From the NCBI GenBank assembly GCA_964613625.1, contig CAZTIC010000003.1, positions 1-40,419 of the forward strand: a stretch of DNA of 40,419 bases. The letters are read 5' to 3'. The position numbers were made by a program, and so were the translations under genes. This stretch comes from an uncultured Gammaproteobacteria bacterium (GTDB taxonomy: Bacteria > Patescibacteriota > Patescibacteriia > Patescibacteriales > CAZTIC01). Positions 13,706 through 40,419 of the stretch are shown here, piece after piece. Positions within the stretch are counted from its first letter, which is position 1. Every line of letters starts with the position of its first letter. The notes under the pieces were generated by a model, which searched no databases, was not told the DNA's origin, and saw nothing but the letters and a program-made list of their open reading frames with translations.

Positions 13706-14419
13706 TTATATTTTTCCATGAAGATAATTTTTTCTTAATTTTTCGGGGAATTTTTCTATGGCGTAGCGAAGCGTTGTTCGTGGCATTGTTTTGTAGTGTA
13801 TTTTTAAGAATTTTTCTTCTACGTCTCTATTTCTGTTTCCGATTTCTCGGAGCATCCAGCCGACCGCCTTATGAATGAGATCGTGTTTGTCGTTTAGTAG
13901 TATTTTAGATATTTTTAAAGTATCTTGGAAGTCAAGATTTCTAATAAAAGCGAATGTTGAAATAATCGCAATTCTTTTTTGCCAGAGATTTTTTGATTTA
14001 GAAAATTTATACAAAATTTCTTTTTCTGATTTATTATTTAGTAAATACTTACCTATAACCCTAGGAACTGTGACATCAACTAGGTCCCAATTATTTATTT
14101 TTTTTGAATTTTTAATAAAAAAAGTATAGATTTGTTTTTGTTGTTTTTCATTTCCTTTTTCGAATTGAAGCACTCCGATAAGTAGGGCTATCATTCTATG
14201 TTCATGGACTTTGCTATCCAATAATCTCTCTAAGTCAGAAACAGGTGTGTTTATAAATTTCTTCGTTATGAGTCTTTGTTGAGGCATTTTTACACCGATA
14301 AAAACATCTCCTTCTCCATATTCGCCAGGACCAGTCTTAAAAAACCTTTGCTGAATTTCAGCCCTTTCTTTATTAGATATTTTTTTTAATCCGGCTATTA
14401 TTTTGTTATAGTTTGTCAT
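13706..14419 (-). CDS. DNA alkylation repair protein (AlkC/AlkD-like HEAT-repeat family)
   Basis: 237 aa with ERAEIQQRFFKTGPGEYGEGDVFIGVKMPQQR, NNWDLVD, LWQKRIAIISTFAFIR and HDLIHKAVGWMLREIG, which are typical of the DNA_alkylation family. Confidence 0.75.
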   Translation of the reverse strand: MTNYNKIIAGLKKISNKERAEIQQRFFKTGPGEYGEGDVFIGVKMPQQRLITKKFINTPVSDLERLLDSKVHEHRMIALLIGVLQFEKGNEKQQKQIYTFFIKNSKKINNWDLVDVTVPRVIGKYLLNNKSEKEILYKFSKSKNLWQKRIAIISTFAFIRNLDFQDTLKISKILLNDKHDLIHKAVGWMLREIGNRNRDVEEKFLKIHYKTMPRTTLRYAIEKFPEKLRKNYLHGKI

Positions 14420-14465
14420 GAGATATAATTATTTGTCATATGTTTTTTGTTAAAAAATTATATAA

Positions 14466-14909
14466 TTATTTATTTTTCTCACCAAAATTACTATAATGTT
14501 TTTTCTTTTTAATATTGTCCAAGGCAAATATAATTTCTGGTATAGTGCTCTTAGGTAAATTATCAATAGGGAACCAGCTTAGATCAGTACATTTTTTGGG
14601 TTCCATGTTTTTTATTTCCCCGTCCCATTCACTGCAAGTGATATAGATATCAATATATTCTCTATCAAAAGAGAATCGATGCATGATATGTACTACGGTT
14701 AAGTTTTTTAATTCCAATGTTATATTTGCCTCTTCTTTGGCCTCTCTAATAATGCATTCTTCCGCTGTTTCGTTGCCATCGAAATGTCCAGAAACCATAC
14801 TATATTTACCATCCTGAAAGCCAGAATTGGCTCTTTTGAGAAATAATATTTCTCCATCTTTTTCGAGAACTAGATATGCTGCTATATAGATTTTGAATTG
14901 TTCTTTCAT
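14466..14909 (-). CDS. NUDIX hydrolase
   Basis: 147 aa with the Nudix box GHFDGNETAEECIIREAKEEANI (G-x5-E-x7-REUxEE). Confidence 0.8.
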   Translation of the reverse strand: MKEQFKIYIAAYLVLEKDGEILFLKRANSGFQDGKYSMVSGHFDGNETAEECIIREAKEEANITLELKNLTVVHIMHRFSFDREYIDIYITCSEWDGEIKNMEPKKCTDLSWFPIDNLPKSTIPEIIFALDNIKKKKHYSNFGEKNK

Positions 14910-14913
14910 TTAT

Positions 14914-15207
14914 TTAATTATTTTTTCTATAAATAAAAATTTGATAAAGTATTATTCCGACAGTTATTATGCCTAATCCTTGTCCAAGGACTAAAACCAT
15001 GTCTTTTTGTAATATCCCATGTATGGTCCAGAGTGAATAGGCGACAAGGGACAGTACCATAAACGGAGTTGAGAGACCGTCGGTTGATTTACGATTATAA
15101 TTCTTTTTGATTTGATCTGGTAGACCAATTACTTTAACTAGGATACCAATTGCTAGTGTCAGGAAGCCGATAGCGCCCGCGAATGTAATTGTTTGTAATA
15201 AGCTCAT
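14914..15207 (-). CDS. Small 3-TM PQ-loop / SemiSWEET-like membrane protein (tentative)
   Basis: 97 aa with three hydrophobic helices. The segment LPDQIKKNYNRKSTDGLS resembles the PQ-loop motif (LPQ...K.KS...S) of SemiSWEET transporters. Confidence 0.5.
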   Translation of the reverse strand: MSLLQTITFAGAIGFLTLAIGILVKVIGLPDQIKKNYNRKSTDGLSTPFMVLSLVAYSLWTIHGILQKDMVLVLGQGLGIITVGIILYQIFIYRKNN

Positions 15208-15217
15208 AGTATTATTT

Positions 15218-16042
15218 TTATTTTTTTAATAGCTCTGCATTTAAAAAGTCCTGAATAAATTTTTTAATTTCAGGTCTGTCTGCAAAAGGATTTTTTCTTC
15301 TTGATTCATCATTGCAATAAGTGAAGCCTAGAACATCAGCTGTGAGCGCTTCGCTCATTTCTTCGCTAATTGGAATTTTTTTATTATAATCTGGGTCATT
15401 GCTTTCAAATTTATTATTGTCGCCTCTGTAGGTTGATGAATAATCAGATATTGGTGGATGCTGTTCTGCTAGTTTTGCAAAATGCATCATGGCTTCGTAG
15501 CCGTTAATTTTTTTTCCGTTTGGAAATTTCAGAGTGTGATTTTTCTCATACAGTAATGGTTGAACAATACTATGACCAATTTCATGAATAAAGCCTTGTG
15601 CCAAAACAATTTTTCTAATTTTTTCAGATACTATATCTTTTGGGATTTTGTATAAATAAACATTAGCAGTTAATTCCTTTGTTTCGTCTTCTTTATTGTA
15701 GTCAATATACGAAGGAACAATTGCAGTGGGTGATAAGGCTTCTATTTGGTTGTGTGTTTCTTGAGGTTGTTTATTGGTTGAGTTTTTATGAAACCAGGCA
15801 GAGGGTTTTCCTATGACTTTTTTCATGATTGACCTATTCCTGGCGTTCTCTGGGAACATAGAAAAAAGTCCACCTAATTCTTTTTCTGATAATTCAATTA
15901 AATCTTTATTTTCAATTGGACATGGCAAATCAATTTCTGGCACTTGTGGCATTTCTATTTTAGAACCCCCATACCAATCAAGGGTCTTTTTCATGTCTAG
16001 ACCCGAAGTTTTATCTTTTTCATTTGGTATATATTTTTCCAT
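15218..16042 (-). CDS. Hypothetical protein with a zincin HExxH motif (putative metallopeptidase-like)
   Basis: 274 aa. The only recognisable motif is FIHEIGHSIV (HEIGH). There is no signal peptide or TM helix. Confidence 0.5.
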   Translation of the reverse strand: MEKYIPNEKDKTSGLDMKKTLDWYGGSKIEMPQVPEIDLPCPIENKDLIELSEKELGGLFSMFPENARNRSIMKKVIGKPSAWFHKNSTNKQPQETHNQIEALSPTAIVPSYIDYNKEDETKELTANVYLYKIPKDIVSEKIRKIVLAQGFIHEIGHSIVQPLLYEKNHTLKFPNGKKINGYEAMMHFAKLAEQHPPISDYSSTYRGDNNKFESNDPDYNKKIPISEEMSEALTADVLGFTYCNDESRRKNPFADRPEIKKFIQDFLNAELLKK

Positions 16043-16047
16043 ATTTT

Positions 16048-16566
16048 TTATAATAATTTTAAATAATCAAGTCCTAGGTATCCATTTTCAACATCAGTTA
16101 ATTCACCGCTACGTAAATGGTTTCTGAAATCTTCAATGGACATTTTTATTACTTCGGCAAACTCAGTGTCATTTAATTTTTGATCTCCAACCTTTCGGCA
16201 ATTTGTGGCTACGAAATTGTAGCGAAACATAGTGGAGTAGGCACAGTCGTGGCTAGTTCCAACGAGCTCTACATCCCCAGTGTAGCCAGTCTCTTCAAGT
16301 AGTTCTCTTTTGATAGCATTAATTGGCTCTTCATATTTGTTGATAGCTCCACCTGGCATTTCGAGTAATACTTTTTCCATTCCAGGTCGATATTGTTTAA
16401 CGAGAACTACATTGTTATTTTCAGTTAAGGCCAAAACACAAACCGCAGGTCCTTCGTGTTTTATATCAAAATCATGTATTTTACCGTCAGGTAATCGAAA
16501 GGTCTTTTTTAAGAGTTTTCTAAATCCTGCGCCAAATGGTTCTTCTTTTATCTTTTTCCATTTCAT
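16048..16566 (-). CDS. NUDIX hydrolase, ADP-ribose pyrophosphatase-like
   Basis: 172 aa with the Nudix box GGAINKYEEPINAIKRELLEETGY. The overall layout resembles NudF/ADPRase. Confidence 0.8.
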   Translation of the reverse strand: MKWKKIKEEPFGAGFRKLLKKTFRLPDGKIHDFDIKHEGPAVCVLALTENNNVVLVKQYRPGMEKVLLEMPGGAINKYEEPINAIKRELLEETGYTGDVELVGTSHDCAYSTMFRYNFVATNCRKVGDQKLNDTEFAEVIKMSIEDFRNHLRSGELTDVENGYLGLDYLKLL

Positions 16567-21156: not shown

Positions 21157-23247
21157 ATGTCAGAAAATATTATTCAAAAGATACTAAAACCATCTGCGCG
21201 TGGAAGAGTGTGGCAGATGTTTATTGTTATTATTTTATTAGTTTTGATTGGAGGATTAATTGACGCTGGAAGTTATTATAATAAGGGAGTAGATGTGATA
21301 AAAGCAAAAACTGGAGATACTATTGCCTTACCTTATATGAAAGAGGTTCCTTTTCGTTTAGGTTTGGACTTACAAGGTGGTACTCATTTAGTCTATGAGG
21401 CTGATGTTAGTCTAATAGATTCAAAAGACAAAGATAGTGCGGTAGAGGGTGTAAGAGACGTTATCGAAAGAAGGGTAAATGTATTTGGTGTTAGTGAGCC
21501 TTTGGTGCAAGTAAACAAAACTACGGCTGGAGATTATAGAATCATTGCAGAGCTTGCTGGAATAAATGATGTTAATGAGGCTATTAAGATGATTGGAGAA
21601 ACTCCTCTTTTGGAATTTAAAGAACAAGCTATGGAGCAAAGAGATTTAACTGAAGAAGAGATCGCTCAAATAGAAGAATATAATAACAAAGCCAAAGAAA
21701 AAGGAGAAGAGGTGCTTGGTAAGGTTTTATCTGGCGGTGATTTTGGAGTTTTGGCAAAAGAGTTTAGCGAAGATGCTAGCACTAAAGACGCAGGCGGTGA
21801 TTTAGGTTGGATAACAGAAGATGTTAATAGCGAAATAGTGAGTATTGTTAAGAATTTAGAAATAGACAGCACTAATAGCGACATTATTCAAAAAAGTGCT
21901 GGTTACGAAATAGCGAAACTAGAAGAAAAAAGAGAAAAAACTGATCCATTTACAAATGAGGCAGAGAAGGAAATAGAAGCTTATCATCTTTTGCTTTGTT
22001 ATGAAGGGGTGGAAGGATGTGAGAGTGGTTTGAGTAAAGATGATGCTTATACCAAAATCAAAGAACTAAAAGATCAAGCTACGCCTGAAAATTTTATAGA
22101 TTTAGCTAAAGAAAATTCACAAGAGCCAGGTGCAAATGGCACAGGTGGTTATTTAGGATGGTTTGGAAAGGGTATGATGGTGGAGCCTTTTGAGGATACT
22201 GTATTTCCACAAGAGGTAGGTACTGTATCTTATGTAGTTGAAACTCAATTTGGTTATCATATTATTTACAAAAAAGATGAGAGGAATATCATTGAATATA
22301 AAGTTAGCCATATCTATATAGATAGAATGACAGAGGCGGAAATCCTAGGTCCCCAGGATGATTGGAAAAATACTGAGCTAACTGGAAAATATTTAGATAG
22401 AGCAGTGGTATCTTTTAATCCAAACGATGGTTCTCCTGAAGTATCTTTAGAATTTGATAGTGAGGGTGGAGACTTGTTTGCAGATATTACCGGCAGGAAT
22501 GTCGGTAAGCCAGTAGCTATTTTCTTGGATGGTTATCCAATCAGCGTTCCAAACGTGAATGAAAAAATAACTGGTGGTAGGGCTGTTATAAATGGAAGGT
22601 TTAATCTCGAAGAAGCTAAACTTCTCGTACAGAGACTTAATGCTGGTGCTTTGCCAGTGCCGATTGAACTTATTAGTCAAAAGACGGTTGGTGCTAGCCT
22701 TGGTCATCAATCAGTATTAGATAGTTTAAACGCATGCTTGATCGGACTTCTTTTGGTGGCGATATTTATGATTTTGTTTTATAGATTGCCTGGTATTCTA
22801 GCTGTTATTTCTTTGACTATTTACGGTATATTAGTGTTAGCAGTGTTCAAAATCTGGTCAGTAACGCTTTCGCTCGCTGGTCTTGCTGGATTTATATTAT
22901 CAGTTGGTATGGCGGTGGACGCTAATGTTCTTATATTTGAAAGATTTAAAGAAGAACTCAAAATGGGTAAGCCACTACTAAATGCAATTGACGAAGGATT
23001 CAAAAGAGCTTGGCCGTCAATTCGTGATGGAAACATCTCTACATTAATCACGTGTGTTATATTGTTTACTTTCTCAACTAGTATTGTGAAGGGGTTCGCT
23101 ATTACACTTGGACTTGGAGTACTCGTATCTATGTTCTCAGCAATTGTTATCACCAAGAACTTACTTTCATTGATACTCGGGAGATGGGCTGAAAAACACA
23201 CTTGGTTACTCGGAGTAAAAAAGAAAAATAATAATAACGAAGAATAA
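21157..23247 (+). CDS. secD: Protein translocase subunit SecD with inserted parvulin-type PPIase modules
   Basis: 696 aa. SecD blocks are LGLDLQGGTHLVYE, FGVSEPLVQ, PLLEF, ELTGKYL, PVAIFLDG and the C-terminal 6-TM region with VDANVLIFER. Residues ~160-395 carry GGDLGWI ... GYEI and AYHLLL ... GGYLGWFGKGMMVEPFEDTVF ... FGYHIIYK (PpiC/parvulin signatures). Confidence 0.9.
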   Translation: MSENIIQKILKPSARGRVWQMFIVIILLVLIGGLIDAGSYYNKGVDVIKAKTGDTIALPYMKEVPFRLGLDLQGGTHLVYEADVSLIDSKDKDSAVEGVRDVIERRVNVFGVSEPLVQVNKTTAGDYRIIAELAGINDVNEAIKMIGETPLLEFKEQAMEQRDLTEEEIAQIEEYNNKAKEKGEEVLGKVLSGGDFGVLAKEFSEDASTKDAGGDLGWITEDVNSEIVSIVKNLEIDSTNSDIIQKSAGYEIAKLEEKREKTDPFTNEAEKEIEAYHLLLCYEGVEGCESGLSKDDAYTKIKELKDQATPENFIDLAKENSQEPGANGTGGYLGWFGKGMMVEPFEDTVFPQEVGTVSYVVETQFGYHIIYKKDERNIIEYKVSHIYIDRMTEAEILGPQDDWKNTELTGKYLDRAVVSFNPNDGSPEVSLEFDSEGGDLFADITGRNVGKPVAIFLDGYPISVPNVNEKITGGRAVINGRFNLEEAKLLVQRLNAGALPVPIELISQKTVGASLGHQSVLDSLNACLIGLLLVAIFMILFYRLPGILAVISLTIYGILVLAVFKIWSVTLSLAGLAGFILSVGMAVDANVLIFERFKEELKMGKPLLNAIDEGFKRAWPSIRDGNISTLITCVILFTFSTSIVKGFAITLGLGVLVSMFSAIVITKNLLSLILGRWAEKHTWLLGVKKKNNNNEE

Positions 23248-32521: not shown

Positions 32522-35881
<3,360 letters not shown>

Positions 35882-35903: not shown

Positions 35904-35930
35904 TTAGCACTCTCTTGACACGAGTGCTAA
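35904..35930. promoter_or_regulatory. CIRCE operator (HrcA binding site)
   Basis: TTAGCACTC-tcttgacac-GAGTGCTAA is a perfect match to the CIRCE consensus TTAGCACTC-N9-GAGTGCTAA. Confidence 0.92.
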
Positions 35931-35942
35931 TTTTGTTATAAT
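35915..35942 (+). promoter_or_regulatory. Promoter: TTGACA-16-TATAAT, overlapping CIRCE
   Basis: TTGACA (35915-35920) lies within the CIRCE spacer. TATAAT lies at 35937-35942. Confidence 0.7.
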
Positions 35943-35968: not shown

Positions 35969-36649
35969 ATGGACGATAGAAAGCAGGAAATACTTAATAT
36001 AATAATAAAAGAACATATTAAAACAGGTGCGCCAGTCGGGTCTTCTATTGTTGTAGATAGGTACAAATCAGATATATCTTCAGCTACTATCAGAAATGAA
36101 ATGTCTAGTTTGGAAAATGATGATTATATTATTCAGCCACATACTTCAGCTGGAAGAGTACCGACTGAAAAAGCGTATAGGCTGTATCTAGATAATTTGA
36201 AAGAAAAAAAAGTGAATGATCAAAATGCTAAAATCTTGGATCAGAATCTCAGTAAGGCAGATGAAGATAGTTTTAAAAAAACCGCTAAAGAATTAGCAAG
36301 ATTATCAGGCAATGCAGTATTTTGGGCAATACATAAAAATAATTTATATTATACAGGGATATCAAATTTATTAACTCAACCAGAATTTATTCAGACTAAT
36401 TTAATTTTAGATATATCTGCTGTTATCGATAGAGTGGATGAGATTATTAGTGAAATATTCGAAGACATAAAAGAGGAGCCGGAAATATTAGTTGGCTCCA
36501 CAAATCCTTTTGGAAATTTCTGTAGTACCATTATAGTAAAGTATAAAAAAGATGATAATATTGGCTTATTTGGAATACTTGGTCCGATGAGAATGGATTA
36601 TGAAAATAATTTAGCATTAGTAAATTATATAAAAGGGAAATTAACATAG
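35969..36649 (+). CDS. hrcA: Heat-inducible transcription repressor HrcA (short form, 226 aa)
   Basis: The N-terminal winged helix is GAPVGSSIVVDRY...SSATIRNEMSSLENDDYIIQPHTSAGRVPTEKAYRLYLD. It is preceded by CIRCE. Confidence 0.85.
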   Translation: MDDRKQEILNIIIKEHIKTGAPVGSSIVVDRYKSDISSATIRNEMSSLENDDYIIQPHTSAGRVPTEKAYRLYLDNLKEKKVNDQNAKILDQNLSKADEDSFKKTAKELARLSGNAVFWAIHKNNLYYTGISNLLTQPEFIQTNLILDISAVIDRVDEIISEIFEDIKEEPEILVGSTNPFGNFCSTIIVKYKKDDNIGLFGILGPMRMDYENNLALVNYIKGKLT

Positions 36650-36669
36650 AGACGCATAGCAATGCGTCT
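36650..36669. repeat. GC-rich hairpin directly after the hrcA stop
   Basis: AGACGCAT-agca-ATGCGTCT, with no T-run. Confidence 0.6.
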
Positions 36670-36690: not shown

Positions 36691-37518
36691 ATGAGTGAGA
36701 AACAAGAAAATATAAGACCAATTGTAGGTGCTTTTATTTTTAATGAAAAAGAGGAATTGTTTTTAATGAAATCACCCAAGCGGCACGATAAATATGTTTG
36801 TCCGGGTGGAGGAGTGGATTTAGGAGAATCCCTGGAAGATGCTGTTATTCGAGAAATAAAAGAAGAAACAAATATAGATATTAAAGATATAGAATTTTTG
36901 GGAGTAGACGAAGATGTTAATCTTGGCAATGATGTTTATACTAAAAAAGAAAGTCATTTAATATTTTTTGATTACAGGGCAGTTGTTAAGAAAAATAATA
37001 AAATTATTTTAAATGAAGAAGCTGCTGATTATAAATGGTTAAAACCAGAAGAATGGATTAAACGCGGTAATTTGGGTCGGCCTACAGAAAAATCAATTAA
37101 AAAATATTTAATAGAAAAAAAAGAAGGTTTTGAAGGTCAGTATAAACGTGCATTGGCTGATTATCAAAATTTACTGAAGCAATCTGCTAAAGAAAGAGAA
37201 GAATTTGTAAAATATGCTAATGAGCAGTTAATATTAGAAATAATTCCAGTTTATAATAATCTAAAAATTTCGCTAGAACACGTAGATAAGACAGTTGAAA
37301 AAAATGGTTGGCTCGAAGGAGTAAAGTTTGTAACTAAGCAGTTCAAAGATATTTTAAATAATCTGGGAGTAAAGGAAATTGAAACTAAAGGAAAAAAGTT
37401 TGATCCAAGTATTATGGAAGCATTGGAAGGTAAAGGCAAGAAGGTAAAAAAAGAAGTAATGCCAGGGTATATACTCAAGGAAAAAGTGATAATGCCCGCT
37501 AAAGTTATTTTAGAATAA
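36691..37518 (+). CDS. grpE: NUDIX hydrolase domain fused to nucleotide exchange factor GrpE
   Basis: 275 aa. Residues ~8-135 carry a Nudix fold with the box GGVDLGESLEDAVIREIKEETNI. Residues ~150-275 carry GrpE signatures (RALADYQNLLKQSAKEREE, IIPVYNNLKISLEH, GKKFDPSIMEAL, PGYILKEKVIMPAKVIL). No Met lies between residue 26 and the GrpE core. Confidence 0.85.
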   Translation: MSEKQENIRPIVGAFIFNEKEELFLMKSPKRHDKYVCPGGGVDLGESLEDAVIREIKEETNIDIKDIEFLGVDEDVNLGNDVYTKKESHLIFFDYRAVVKKNNKIILNEEAADYKWLKPEEWIKRGNLGRPTEKSIKKYLIEKKEGFEGQYKRALADYQNLLKQSAKEREEFVKYANEQLILEIIPVYNNLKISLEHVDKTVEKNGWLEGVKFVTKQFKDILNNLGVKEIETKGKKFDPSIMEALEGKGKKVKKEVMPGYILKEKVIMPAKVILE

Positions 37519-37540: not shown

Positions 37541-37969
37541 ATGTCATTAATAAAATGGAGACCAATATTTGATAATTTTGAGGATATGGATAAAATGTTC
37601 TCAGAGTTTATGCCTGTAGCAAAAAATTCAGTCGCAGATTTTACTCCAGCTATAGATATGTATGAAGACAAAGAGAATGTTATTGTTGAAACGCAATTAG
37701 CTGGAATTGATCCAGAAAAAGTAAGTATTTCAATTGATAATGATGTTCTCTCTATAAAAGGAGAGAGTGAGAAGCGTAGCGAAGTAGAAGATAAAAATTA
37801 TTATAGAAAAGAAATAAGAAGAGGAGGTTTTTATAGAAGTATTCCATTGCCAGCTCATGTTTTGGGTAACAAAGCTGTTGCTGAAGCTAATGATGGAGTC
37901 TTGAAGATATCTATTCCAAAGGCATCAGCTAAACAGCCAAAGAAAATTGAAATAAAAACTAAGAAGTAA
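37541..37969 (+). CDS. Small heat-shock protein, Hsp20/alpha-crystallin family
   Basis: 142 aa with the alpha-crystallin domain (PAIDMYEDKENVIVETQLAGIDPEKVSISIDNDVLSIKGE ... GVLKISIPK). Confidence 0.9.
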   Translation: MSLIKWRPIFDNFEDMDKMFSEFMPVAKNSVADFTPAIDMYEDKENVIVETQLAGIDPEKVSISIDNDVLSIKGESEKRSEVEDKNYYRKEIRRGGFYRSIPLPAHVLGNKAVAEANDGVLKISIPKASAKQPKKIEIKTKK

Positions 37970-38058: not shown

Positions 38059-39042
38059 ATGTCTTCACGAATAAATAGTGTAAATGTGACTGTAAAAAAA
38101 GACGCTCCTAAAGAAAAGGCAGCGCGTAAAAAGAAAACAGTAAAGAAAAAAACAGTTTCAAGAAAACAAGTTAGCTTGACTCAGGATGTTCCTCCGAAGA
38201 TTGGTGCTAGTAAATCTAGTAATCAATTTGCGAGTTTGTTAATCTCAATAATTATCACCGCTATTGTAGTGGGTGGAGGAATATCTGTTATTCAAAAATT
38301 AATTAGCTCCAAAAACGTAATGGAAGCTAAAAATGAAACAGAAAGCGTGAAGTCAGAATTTCAGTCAAAGCTTGAAGAGTTAAAAAATAAACTTCAAGGT
38401 ACAGAAAGTGAAAACGAAGAATTAAAAAATAAAAAGGAAAAATTAGCTCAAATTTTGAGTAAAGCAAAAACTGAATATATAAATCAAGATTTAGGGATTA
38501 GTTTTTCTTATCCTGCTAGTTTTGGTGATGTGACTGTTGCTTATGAAAACGGGGATGCTGGGAGAAACTTCATAGGAAGTTTCTCAGATTTTGATAAGCT
38601 TGTTTTTGGAGGAGTAACAGAAGATTATAGCGTCATAAGAAAATTAGAATTAATCGATACTCAAGGATATCGAGTGAGAAGCGGGAAATATTATTTCAAG
38701 TCAATTGGCGAGGGGCCAGATCTATATGAATTTGAGCCATTTAAGATTTTAGAAGTAGATAATACTGAAATTCCAGTGATTGATAAAGAGGATTTTTTAG
38801 TAAAAGAGGATAGTGGTTTGACTTTTGATGAGGTTATAGCAGATGAATCTGTAATCACTGAAGTTTCGGTGGACAAAGAAAGAAATAGAATCCTTGCATT
38901 GGTAAATTTGGAAGGAGAAGAATTCACTGGAATGGCTTTCTTGGATAATAATACAGAGGCTTTACCATTAAGTAATTTTGAAGTAATATTGAGTTCAATA
39001 ATTATAAATGAGCCAGTGATAGATAGTGAAATAGTGGAATAG
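38059..39042 (+). CDS. Hypothetical bitopic membrane protein with a Lys-rich N-terminus and a coiled coil
   Basis: 327 aa with a basic N-terminus (KKDAPKEKAARKKKTVKKKTV), one TM helix (FASLLISIIITAIVVGGGISVI), a coiled coil (SKLEELKNKLQGTESENEELKNKKEKL), then an unassigned ~190-aa domain. Confidence 0.6.
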   Translation: MSSRINSVNVTVKKDAPKEKAARKKKTVKKKTVSRKQVSLTQDVPPKIGASKSSNQFASLLISIIITAIVVGGGISVIQKLISSKNVMEAKNETESVKSEFQSKLEELKNKLQGTESENEELKNKKEKLAQILSKAKTEYINQDLGISFSYPASFGDVTVAYENGDAGRNFIGSFSDFDKLVFGGVTEDYSVIRKLELIDTQGYRVRSGKYYFKSIGEGPDLYEFEPFKILEVDNTEIPVIDKEDFLVKEDSGLTFDEVIADESVITEVSVDKERNRILALVNLEGEEFTGMAFLDNNTEALPLSNFEVILSSIIINEPVIDSEIVE

Positions 39043-39152: not shown

Positions 39153-40419
39153 ATGAGTAAAATTTTAGGAATTGATCTTGGAACCACAAATTCAGCCATG
39201 GCAATCATAGAGGGGGGTCAACCAAAGATATTAGAGAATGCGGAGGGAAATAGAACCACACCTTCAGTTGTAGCTATTTCAAAAAATGGTGAGAGATTAG
39301 TAGGTCAAACTGCAAAAAGGCAGGCAGTTACAAATCCAGAAAATACAGTTTATGCTGTAAAACGTCTTATTGGCCGTAAATTTAACGATGAAGAGGTTCA
39401 AAAAGATTTAAAGAATTCACCATTTAAAATTGTTCAAGCAGGAGAGGGAGTAAAAGTAGCTATGAACGGAAAAGAATATTCTCCTCAAGAGGTATCAGCT
39501 ATGATTTTGTCAAAATTAAAAGCAGATGCCGAAGCTAAAATCGGAGAAAAAATAACTGAAGCTGTTATTACTGTGCCGGCTTATTTTAATGACTCTCAAA
39601 GGCAAGCCACAAAAGACGCTGGTAAGATTGCCGGACTTGAAGTGAAACGTATTATTAACGAACCGACTGCGGCGGCCTTGGCCTATGGTTTTGACAAGAA
39701 AAAAGGTCAACAGATCGCAGTGTATGATCTTGGTGGTGGTACTTTTGATATCTCTATATTAGACGTATCTGAGGATACAGTAGAAGTGAAATCAACCAAT
39801 GGAAATACTCATTTGGGTGGAGAAGATTTTGATCAAATAATCATTGGTTGGATAATTGATGAGTTTAAAAAAGATCAAGGAATTGATCTAGGTAAAGATA
39901 CTCTAGCTCTTCAACGTATCAAAGAGGCAGCTGAAAAAGCCAAGATTGAATTATCTACAACCATGGAAACTGAAATTAACCAACCATTTATAACTACTGG
40001 TGAAGACGGTCCGAAGCATCTTGTAATGAAAATGACTCGTTCAAAATTGGAGGAATTAGTAGGTGAATTAGTAGAGAAAACAATTGAGCCATGTAGGGCA
40101 GCTTTGAAAGACGCCGGATTTGATGTGAAGGATATCGAGGAGGTAGTGATGGTTGGTGGTATGACTCGAATGCCCTTGGTACAAAGTAAAATCAAAGAAT
40201 TTTTTGAAAAGGAGCCAAATCTTGGTGTGAATCCTGATGAAGTAGTAGCGATGGGAGCTGCTGTGCAAGCTGGTGTTTTGCAAGGAGATGTGAAGGATGT
40301 TTTGCTTTTAGATGTAACACCATTAACTCTTGGTATCGAGACATTAGGTGGTGTTTCTAGTCCTTTGATTGATAGAAATACAACTATCCCAACATCCAAA
40401 TCTCAGACATTTTCAACTG
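39153..40419 (+). CDS. dnaK: Molecular chaperone DnaK (Hsp70), 3'-truncated by the window end
   Basis: My own translation from ATG 39153 gives [41 protein letters not shown]..., then [20 protein letters not shown] and [12 protein letters not shown]. It is open to the end of the window and absent from the track because it has no stop. Confidence 0.97.

Follow-up and report, generated by a model that had tools for sequence, protein, structure and literature searches.

The window analysed here, the whole 40,419-nucleotide stretch of contig CAZTIC010000003.1, ends in a heat-shock operon in which the place of grpE is taken by a gene that joins a NUDIX domain to the N-terminus of GrpE, the nucleotide exchange factor of the chaperone DnaK. 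The elements of the operon follow one another in the order CIRCE (controlling inverted repeat of chaperone expression), hrcA, nudix::grpE, hsp20, orf327 and dnaK (Table 1). The classical arrangement of grpE in many bacteria is hrcA-grpE-dnaK under CIRCE. The operator in the window, TTAGCACTC-N9-GAGTGCTAA, spans the -35 hexamer of the promoter, so that bound HrcA would occlude the latter. A first-pass annotation, made from the sequence alone, had located the fusion in an HrcA/CIRCE operon, and the perfect CIRCE together with hrcA and dnaK around the fusion gene bears this out.

A NUDIX domain in front of GrpE

The fusion gene is one unbroken, ATG-initiated open reading frame (ORF) of 275 amino acids, with no gap, stop or change of frame between 36691 and 37518. 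Both halves score well above the Pfam gathering cut-offs of 21.1 bits for PF00293 (NUDIX) and 25.8 bits for PF01025 (GrpE): PF00293 matches residues 9-126 with 77.8 bits (E 1e-21), and PF01025 matches residues 140-273 with 106.5 bits (E 1.5e-30), covering profile positions 23-162 of 165. The single-ORF fusion and the domain assignments proposed in the first-pass annotation therefore hold, and the strings that it quoted are all present in the protein (GGVDLGESLEDAVIREIKEETNI at residues 40-62, RALADYQNLLKQSAKEREE at 153-171 and PGYILKEKVIMPAKVIL at 258-274). In phmmer comparisons, the GrpE half also matches the solved GrpE structures 4ANI (1e-13), 3A6M (1.9e-10) and 1DKG (1.1e-6). None of the NCBIfam GrpE equivalogs reaches its cut-off (the best, PRK14153, scores 85.9 bits versus 194) because these are lineage-specific, full-length models, so that the low scores reflect divergence and the missing N-terminus rather than absence of the domain.

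The NUDIX box fits the consensus GX5EX7REUXEEXGU with a single deviation, already pointed out in the first-pass annotation, namely the replacement of the final G by N at residue 61 (box position 22). In the set of 114 diverged fusion proteins that we used for all conservation analyses, this position is occupied by N in 88 members, by G in 16 and by D in 8, that is, N is the norm in this family. It had also been suggested that GrpE could not easily be made separately from an ATG; indeed, M26 is the last in-frame ATG before the GrpE core. Other possible start codons in frame are limited to GTG42, TTG70, TTG128 and TTG155, and we rejected internal initiation of a separate GrpE given that no recognisable signal is found at any of these, with the proviso that Shine-Dalgarno use is unclear in the CAZTIC01 window even at true starts.

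An AlphaFold2 (AF2) model built on the alignment of the 114 fusions has a mean predicted local distance difference test (pLDDT) score of 89.8, with the NUDIX domain (residues 10-140) at about 97 and only some 7 N-terminal residues at low confidence within residues 1-141. The last NUDIX helix (130-141) is separated from a 51-residue helix (146-196) by a break at residues 142-145, the block of lowest confidence (73). The GrpE part of this monomer model, with helices 146-196 and 200-224 and strands 227-274, has pLDDT values of 76-94.

The sequence matches to GrpE of Escherichia coli (1DKG), Geobacillus kaustophilus (4ANI) and Thermus thermophilus (3A6M) cover the stalk, the bundle and the beta domain, the predicted order of secondary structure elements is the same, and the gene occupies the same position between hrcA and dnaK. 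Unlike the canonical protein, which has a disordered N-terminal tail of about 33 residues with a motif that binds the DnaK substrate-binding domain, the fusion has no such tail: no E. coli-type 17-IIM-19 motif was found in residues 1-141, which form the folded NUDIX domain instead. The alignment to E. coli GrpE starts around residues 57-60, with residue 149 of the fusion corresponding to E. coli residue 60, and approximately the first third of the stalk helix is missing. In E. coli, the tail binds the substrate-binding site of DnaK via 17-IIM-19 and promotes substrate release (PMC12915176), and the same source and bioRxiv 10.1101/2020.07.03.186056 place the thermosensor in the coiled-coil stalk. 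The proposal of the first-pass annotation that NUDIX replaces an unstructured thermosensor N-terminus is thus correct as to the unstructured N-terminus and incorrect as to the thermosensor; as judged from the alignment, the replaced part is the pseudo-substrate tail plus part of the stalk.

Table 1. Features of the heat-shock operon, and of a cluster with stand-alone NUDIX genes, in the window
Feature	Position	Strand	Extent and basis
CIRCE operator, predicted HrcA site	35904..35930	+	perfect consensus match, read from sequence
sigma-70-type promoter, TTGACA-16-TATAAT, extended -10 TG	35915..35942	+	12/12 matches, best site of the region
hrcA, short form	35969..36649	+	226 aa; PF01628 59.5 bits; TIGR00331 175.8 bits, below cut-off 197.2
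nudix::grpE fusion gene	36691..37518	+	275 aa plus stop; ORF listing, Pfam, homologues
NUDIX domain	36712..37113	+	aa 8-141 in AF2 model; Pfam aa 9-126
NUDIX box G40-I62 (GGVDLGESLEDAVIREIKEETNI)	36808..36876	+	aa 40-62; 114-member family alignment
short hinge	37114..37125	+	aa 142-145, last NUDIX helix to GrpE stalk helix; AF2
GrpE core	37126..37515	+	aa 146-275: stalk/bundle helix 146-196, helices 200-224, beta domain 227-274
hsp20, small heat-shock protein	37541..37969	+	142 aa; PF00011 66.9 bits
orf327, predicted N-terminal membrane anchor and coiled coil	38059..39042	+	between hsp20 and dnaK
dnaK, 5' part	39153..40419	+	translation; continues past window end
stand-alone NUDIX gene	14466-14909	-	cluster 13706-16566
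274-aa ORF, function unassigned	15218-16042	-	cluster 13706-16566
stand-alone NUDIX gene	16048-16566	-	cluster 13706-16566

Spread of the fusion and variation of the GrpE N-terminus

A search of 5.8 billion clustered proteins yielded 963 relatives at E <= 1e-5; nearly all of the 120 relatives listed contain PF00293 and PF01025 in 270-300 amino acids, down to 47% identity, and their named sources are Falkowbacteria, Parcubacteria or 'Patescibacteria group'. In a library of 50%-identity representatives, 55 clusters were found at E <= 1e-30, and the collinear fusion extends to about 60 clusters, with full-length matches that reach about 30% identity. A search started from a distant member added 147 further relatives at E <= 1e-10, of which the 120 listed all combine NUDIX and GrpE and the named ones come mostly from Candidatus Moranbacteria. 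By these sequence comparisons, the collinear NUDIX-GrpE architecture is shared by hundreds of homologues in several candidate phyla of the candidate phyla radiation (CPR), including Candidatus Falkowbacteria, Magasanikbacteria, Moranbacteria and Parcubacteria. The position of the NUDIX/GrpE junction is identical in the main lineage and in the Moranbacteria/Parcubacteria lineage. A survey of related genomes, as advised in the first-pass annotation, hence reveals the same two-domain form in many independent assemblies.

These comparisons make it practically impossible that two adjacent genes were joined through the loss of a stop codon or a frameshift introduced in sequencing or assembly, and we consider this origin ruled out. 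Neighbours of the kind required do exist, given that a separate NUDIX gene lies immediately upstream of grpE in two related loci (L011, 1071-2371; L081, 5001-6309), but in both it precedes a NUDIX::GrpE fusion and not a plain grpE. Moreover, hundreds of independently assembled homologues share a single collinear ORF and the position of the junction, and the reading frame in the window is uninterrupted.

The first-pass annotation knew of no description of the architecture, and named an architecture already catalogued as common as a counter-argument. This partly applies: the fusion is not rare and is known to automatic annotation, with pipelines naming the fusions 'nucleotide exchange factor GrpE' and IMG sometimes adding 'MutT (NUDIX family)' or 'nucleoside triphosphatase', as in 'molecular chaperone GrpE/8-oxo-dGTP pyrophosphatase MutT'; on the other hand, no published description of a NUDIX-GrpE fusion was found in the literature searched. 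The joint occurrence of GrpE and Nudix in PMC7159879 is unrelated to the fusion, and a 2025 review of GrpE-like exchange factors does not mention NUDIX, enzymatic or domain fusions. The modular N-terminus of GrpE, including the DUF1653 forms described below, appears to be unreported.

Some database records call for caution. One entry (P0093, 389 aa) combines NUDIX, a GrpE without the C-terminal beta strands and an HSP20 without its N-terminus, and is probably a deletion or assembly artefact across the grpE-hsp20 boundary, not a true triple fusion. Many Third Party Annotation (TPA) records of metagenome-assembled genomes (MAGs) with a Patescibacteria-type operon are titled 'uncultured Gammaproteobacteria bacterium' (L004, L006, L009, L015, L016, L025-L027 and others), and single records are labelled Acholeplasmataceae, Planctomycetes or Candidatus Fimivivens (L040, P0098 and P0280 are among the oddly labelled entries). 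All these records are probably mislabelled or mis-binned.

To compare operons, one genome per GTDB species was scanned, which gave 457 related loci, and the best 80 were kept with 10 kb flanks. Each of the 80 has hsp20 and/or dnaK after the GrpE homologue, and orf327 intervenes in some; in nearly all, hsp20 comes after grpE. In 77 loci, a short hrcA is the immediate upstream neighbour of grpE; in L035, L042 and L062, it is cut off by the contig end or was not seen. Full-length DnaK (630-690 aa) is encoded at the equivalent position, and none of the fusion loci examined has a grpE in the operon besides the fusion. The distant forms with two NUDIX domains occupy the same slot.

What varies in this otherwise constant setting is the part that precedes the GrpE core. 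Alignment and Pfam place the beginning of the core at a conserved junction, [F/W]E..YKRALADYQNL, and all N-terminal modules attach at this one point. A K/E-rich disordered tail or almost nothing precedes the core in 29 of the 80 loci (129-200 aa), the shortest protein (L028, 129 aa) beginning with MEGRYKRALADYQNL. NUDIX-GrpE fusions of about 270-313 aa account for 25 loci, 3 of them with a degenerate box. In another 22 loci (L033, L034, L038, L044-L049, L052, L053, L058, L059, L061, L062, L064, L065, L068, L070, L072, L075 and L077), the core is preceded by DUF1653 (PF07866, 82-88 bits), for a total of about 205-235 aa, and the remaining 4 (L012, L014, L016, L020) encode DUF1653-NUDIX-GrpE proteins of about 343 aa. 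These sister proteins (e.g. L046, L012) lie in the same operon and have GrpE cores that are 50-65% identical; their DUF1653 module, of about 62 aa, is not a NUDIX domain and joins just upstream of YKRALADYQNL, as NUDIX does. The only PDB entry for DUF1653, 3BE3, is titled 'uncharacterized', and one paper mentions the domain in the literature searched. Further forms are a degenerate NUDIX-DUF1653-GrpE (P0141) and NUDIX-NUDIX-GrpE proteins of about 450 aa (P0088, P0151, P0175).

One of the latter, P0088 (451 aa), still carries a remnant of the GrpE stalk helix, YEDKYNTVQAKYQNLLKRTADEG, in the stretch that separates its two NUDIX domains; this suggests a tandem duplication of the entire fusion gene, that is, an existing fusion would have been duplicated and the first GrpE half subsequently lost. 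The simplest story, in which the stand-alone NUDIX genes of L011 and L081 represent the state before fusion, was rejected in view of the downstream gene, which is already a fusion, and of the GrpE relic in P0088.

In a neighbour-joining (NJ) tree of GrpE domains (135 columns, without support values and hence used qualitatively), the N-terminal architectures are interleaved. After the fusion in L001, the nearest neighbours of the window in this tree are the NUDIX-less L023, L026, L028 and L035, with cores 64-66% identical. The qualitative message is that the module seems to have been repeatedly lost, replaced or gained. In a comparison aimed at a single origin of the fusion, the pairwise identities of the NUDIX and GrpE domains are weakly correlated (Pearson 0.20, Spearman 0.075), yet above all 500 permutations, and the result does not decide for or against it. 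Because other modules can take the place of NUDIX and the closest GrpE relatives lack it, the comparison of N-termini argues for an accessory rather than an obligatory module; with a bare core, a charged tail or DUF1653 in the same slot of close relatives, the NUDIX module looks dispensable.

A partial precedent comes from Anabaena sp. PCC 7120. It is reported in bioRxiv 10.1101/2025.04.14.648684 that the GrpE protein All4144 has an N-terminal 'HTH' region of about 67 residues that binds DNA and whose deletion leaves dimerisation and nucleotide exchange intact. On that account, All4144 resembles the proteins described here in combining a GrpE core that suffices by itself with an N-terminal accessory module, and differs in that the module is a DNA-binding region rather than an enzyme, belongs to another phylum and is unrelated to NUDIX or DUF1653.

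Probable activity and role of the NUDIX module

Among the 114 fusions, mean pairwise identity is 49.5% in the NUDIX half and 60.4% in GrpE, against 27% in the linker, which also differs in length between homologues. The strict G..E..RE..EE box is present in 111 of the 114. E46, R54, E59 and W116 are invariant, E55 and E58 are each found in 113, and conservation reaches 90% or more at G39, G40, E55, E58, H89, E110 and W122. As far as the alignment tells, this is the conservation pattern of an enzyme under purifying selection. Proteins with two NUDIX domains always keep at least one intact box (L011, L081, P0088): in L011 and P0088, the GrpE-proximal box is degenerate (RK..DE) and the intact copy lies upstream, and in L081 both are intact.

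In Foldseek comparisons, the N-terminal domain matches solved NUDIX enzymes with probability 1.00, template modelling (TM) scores of 0.75-0.83 (target-normalised) and 22-30% identity. The neighbours are NudI/YfaO (3OGA, 6DT3), the nearest in the PDB, the MutT/ADP-ribose pyrophosphatase of Rickettsia felis (4KYX), the Thermus diadenosine hexaphosphate (Ap6A) hydrolase Ndx1 (1VC8), AtNUDX1 (5GP0) and the diadenosine tetraphosphate (Ap4A) hydrolase of Aquifex (3I7U). Like the fused domain, these small MutT-like enzymes consist of a single-domain fold of about 135 aa with an intact GX5EX7REUXEE box. The fused domain differs from them in its covalent link to GrpE and in having no characterised equivalog, and its conserved residues N18, E22, H89, E110, W116 and W122 have no tie to a known specificity. 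A tyrosine about 17-18 residues after the NUDIX box, which we take to be a marker of diadenosine polyphosphate (ApnA) hydrolases, is absent from the fused domain. The genomic context of stand-alone NUDIX relatives (P0197, P0209, P0241) was examined as a guide to function and set aside, the neighbours (radical SAM, serine hydrolase) being unrelated and giving no hint.

Taken with the observed architecture, conservation, intact catalytic motif, operon and operator, and modular N-terminus, the explanation that we favour, with a probability of roughly 0.65, is a bifunctional, HrcA-controlled protein in which a self-sufficient GrpE core bears an active NUDIX hydrolase as its accessory module. The C-terminal 130 residues would function as the DnaK nucleotide exchange factor, and the fusion, the only grpE of the operon, is very probably the only one of the genome. 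The N-terminal 140 residues would form a minimal NUDIX pyrophosphohydrolase of the MutT/NudI-like type that is competent in catalysis and is linked, through a short hinge of variable sequence and length, to the tip of the shortened stalk in the place of the pseudo-substrate tail. With CIRCE overlapping the sigma-70 promoter, release of HrcA under heat or proteotoxic stress would derepress both activities together. GrpE and NUDIX would be produced in a 1:1 ratio and, as GrpE dimerises, the distal end of each dimer stalk would bear two NUDIX domains. We infer that both halves are active, and that the fusion serves mainly the stress-coupled, stoichiometric co-expression of an enzyme that clears nucleotide derivatives, possibly with co-localisation at DnaK. 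The substrate is presumably a nucleoside polyphosphate derivative of the nucleoside triphosphate (NTP), damaged NTP or ApnA class.

Several observations weigh against this explanation. The predicted TM (pTM) score of the AF2 model is 0.59, the orientation of the domains is undefined and contact with DnaK is not predicted. All NCBIfam NUDIX equivalogs score below their cut-offs, including NudI (NF012016, 43.7 bits versus 95), and RppH-type models give only about 33 bits. We attempted to assign a substrate by sequence or fold and rejected the attempt: besides the low NCBIfam scores, the Foldseek neighbours include enzymes for NTP, ApnA, ADP-ribose, GDP-mannose and prenyl diphosphates, fold similarity is about equal to NTP, ApnA, ADP-ribose and prenyl-diphosphate hydrolases, and 1VC8 and 3I7U are no better than the NTPases. 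The fused domain is a minimal MutT-like NUDIX, the substrate of which is not readable from sequence or fold. Finally, some fusions with a single NUDIX domain retain it with a degenerate box (L040, L060, P0117, P0137), so the NUDIX fold may also have a non-catalytic role.

A tighter connection between the two halves, in which NUDIX would work in cis on a nucleotide that binds DnaK during its cycle, either by hydrolysing Ap4A or other ApnA that accumulate under stress and bind DnaK or by destroying released ADP or another inhibitory nucleotide at the exchange site, so that GrpE itself would clear nucleotides, is an attractive idea that we nevertheless hold to be unlikely; the Ap4A or alarmone proposal of the first-pass annotation is likewise speculative. 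NUDIX would be located at the stalk tip, where canonical GrpE tails reach the substrate-binding domain and linker of DnaK (PMC12915176). In E. coli, according to PMC10148737, which cites Johnstone & Farr 1991, Ap4A crosslinks to DnaK, GroEL and ClpB, and apaH mutants are heat-sensitive. Ap4A and Ap6A hydrolases are among the structural neighbours, the catalytic residues are conserved, and the fusion has been retained across several candidate phyla. However, the closest relatives manage without NUDIX or with DUF1653, so the DnaK cycle can do without such coupling; the hinge, though short, is poorly conserved and variable in length; there is no recognisable ApnA-specific signature in the fused NUDIX; and NudI/MutT-type NTPases match equally well in structure. 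Distinctly unlikely, in our assessment, is the broader extension of this idea, whereby the GrpE N-terminus of a large part of the Patescibacteria would be a docking site for interchangeable folded modules (NUDIX, DUF1653, the two in tandem or a duplicated NUDIX) that act on the DnaK cycle, with NUDIX clearing Ap4A, ApnA or ADP in cis and DUF1653 being a new cofactor domain of the Hsp70 cycle.

The opposite view, that the NUDIX fold chiefly caps the shortened stalk, as a structural element or a ligand sensor, with catalysis secondary, appears very unlikely, even though a degenerate NUDIX is kept beside GrpE in L011, L040, L060, P0088 (the proximal copy), P0117, P0137 and P0141, and the unrelated folded DUF1653 occupies the same junction, suggesting that position may outweigh chemistry. 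The presence of every catalytic residue in 111 of the 114 fusions, with invariant metal-binding glutamates, is unexpected for a pure scaffold, and the minimal GrpE proteins of 129-143 aa (L028, L071) show that the stalk needs no cap. Furthermore, the degenerate proximal copy in L011 and P0088 is accompanied by an intact copy upstream, which indicates selection for activity and is consistent with the bifunctional protein that we favour.

Surroundings of the operon and significance of the fusion

The window has 33% G+C, carries rpoB/rpoC, secA, secDF, mreBC, PBP2, guaAB, a Mur ligase and FemAB, and has its nearest relatives in Candidatus Falkowbacteria and other Patescibacteria; it comes from an ultra-small bacterium of this group. 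Within the heat-shock operon, the short HrcA is a feature of the whole clade (about 226-250 aa); the 338-position TIGR00331 model is matched in two stretches and below the cut-off, and a portion of the central region present in canonical HrcA is apparently missing. A perfect 8-bp hairpin, AGACGCAT-AGCA-ATGCGTCT, without a T-tract, lies at 36650-36669, directly 3' of the hrcA stop and 21 nt before nudix::grpE; it is not conserved, because hrcA and grpE abut or overlap in many relatives. For orf327, a Pfam scan gave no family above threshold, and homologues are found at the equivalent position in a subset of relatives (L005, L007, L008, L023, L026, L027, L028, L035, L051, L066).

Directly upstream of the operon are the divergent guaA and guaB (32522-34426, reverse strand, and 34286-35881, forward strand). 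The longest mechanically derived ORFs overlap by about 140 nt, and the true starts therefore probably lie within them, one reading MQEALTFDD... The gene for IMPDH adjoins hrcA upstream in L003, L005, L006, L009, L024, L067 and L074 as well. A SecD homologue encoded at 21157-23247 on the forward strand (696 aa) contains parvulin-type peptidyl-prolyl isomerase (PPIase) domain(s) of PF13616/PF00639, matched in two stretches at residues ~251-372, between the first periplasmic subdomain (97-157) and the P1 head (405-501); from its domain order, it looks like a foldase built into the periplasmic domain of the translocon. A four-gene cluster on the reverse strand (13706-16566) encodes a DNA alkylation repair protein (PF08713), two stand-alone NUDIX proteins and a 274-aa ORF. 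The possibility that these two NUDIX proteins are recent paralogues of the fused domain was rejected, the resemblance being confined to the area of the NUDIX box.

To our knowledge, GrpE has been treated as an invariant, single-purpose co-chaperone. In a large section of the bacterial tree, its regulatory tail is swapped for an apparently active NUDIX pyrophosphohydrolase or for DUF1653, which should come as a real surprise to specialists in Hsp70, even if this is a simple domain fusion with a module that is dispensable in close relatives. If the NUDIX domain acts on ligands of DnaK, this would be a new way of tuning the Hsp70 cycle and a concrete link between a stress nucleotide, Ap4A, and chaperones, which has been suggested since 1991; if the docking-site idea were true, the exchange factor would itself clear nucleotides or sense alarmones. 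Should the fusion be a mere co-expression device, it would still place this NUDIX subfamily among the heat-shock functions of genome-reduced, host-dependent bacteria and provide the first functional context for DUF1653. The bare cores, tails, DUF1653, NUDIX and tandem forms amount to a natural deletion series of the GrpE N-terminus.

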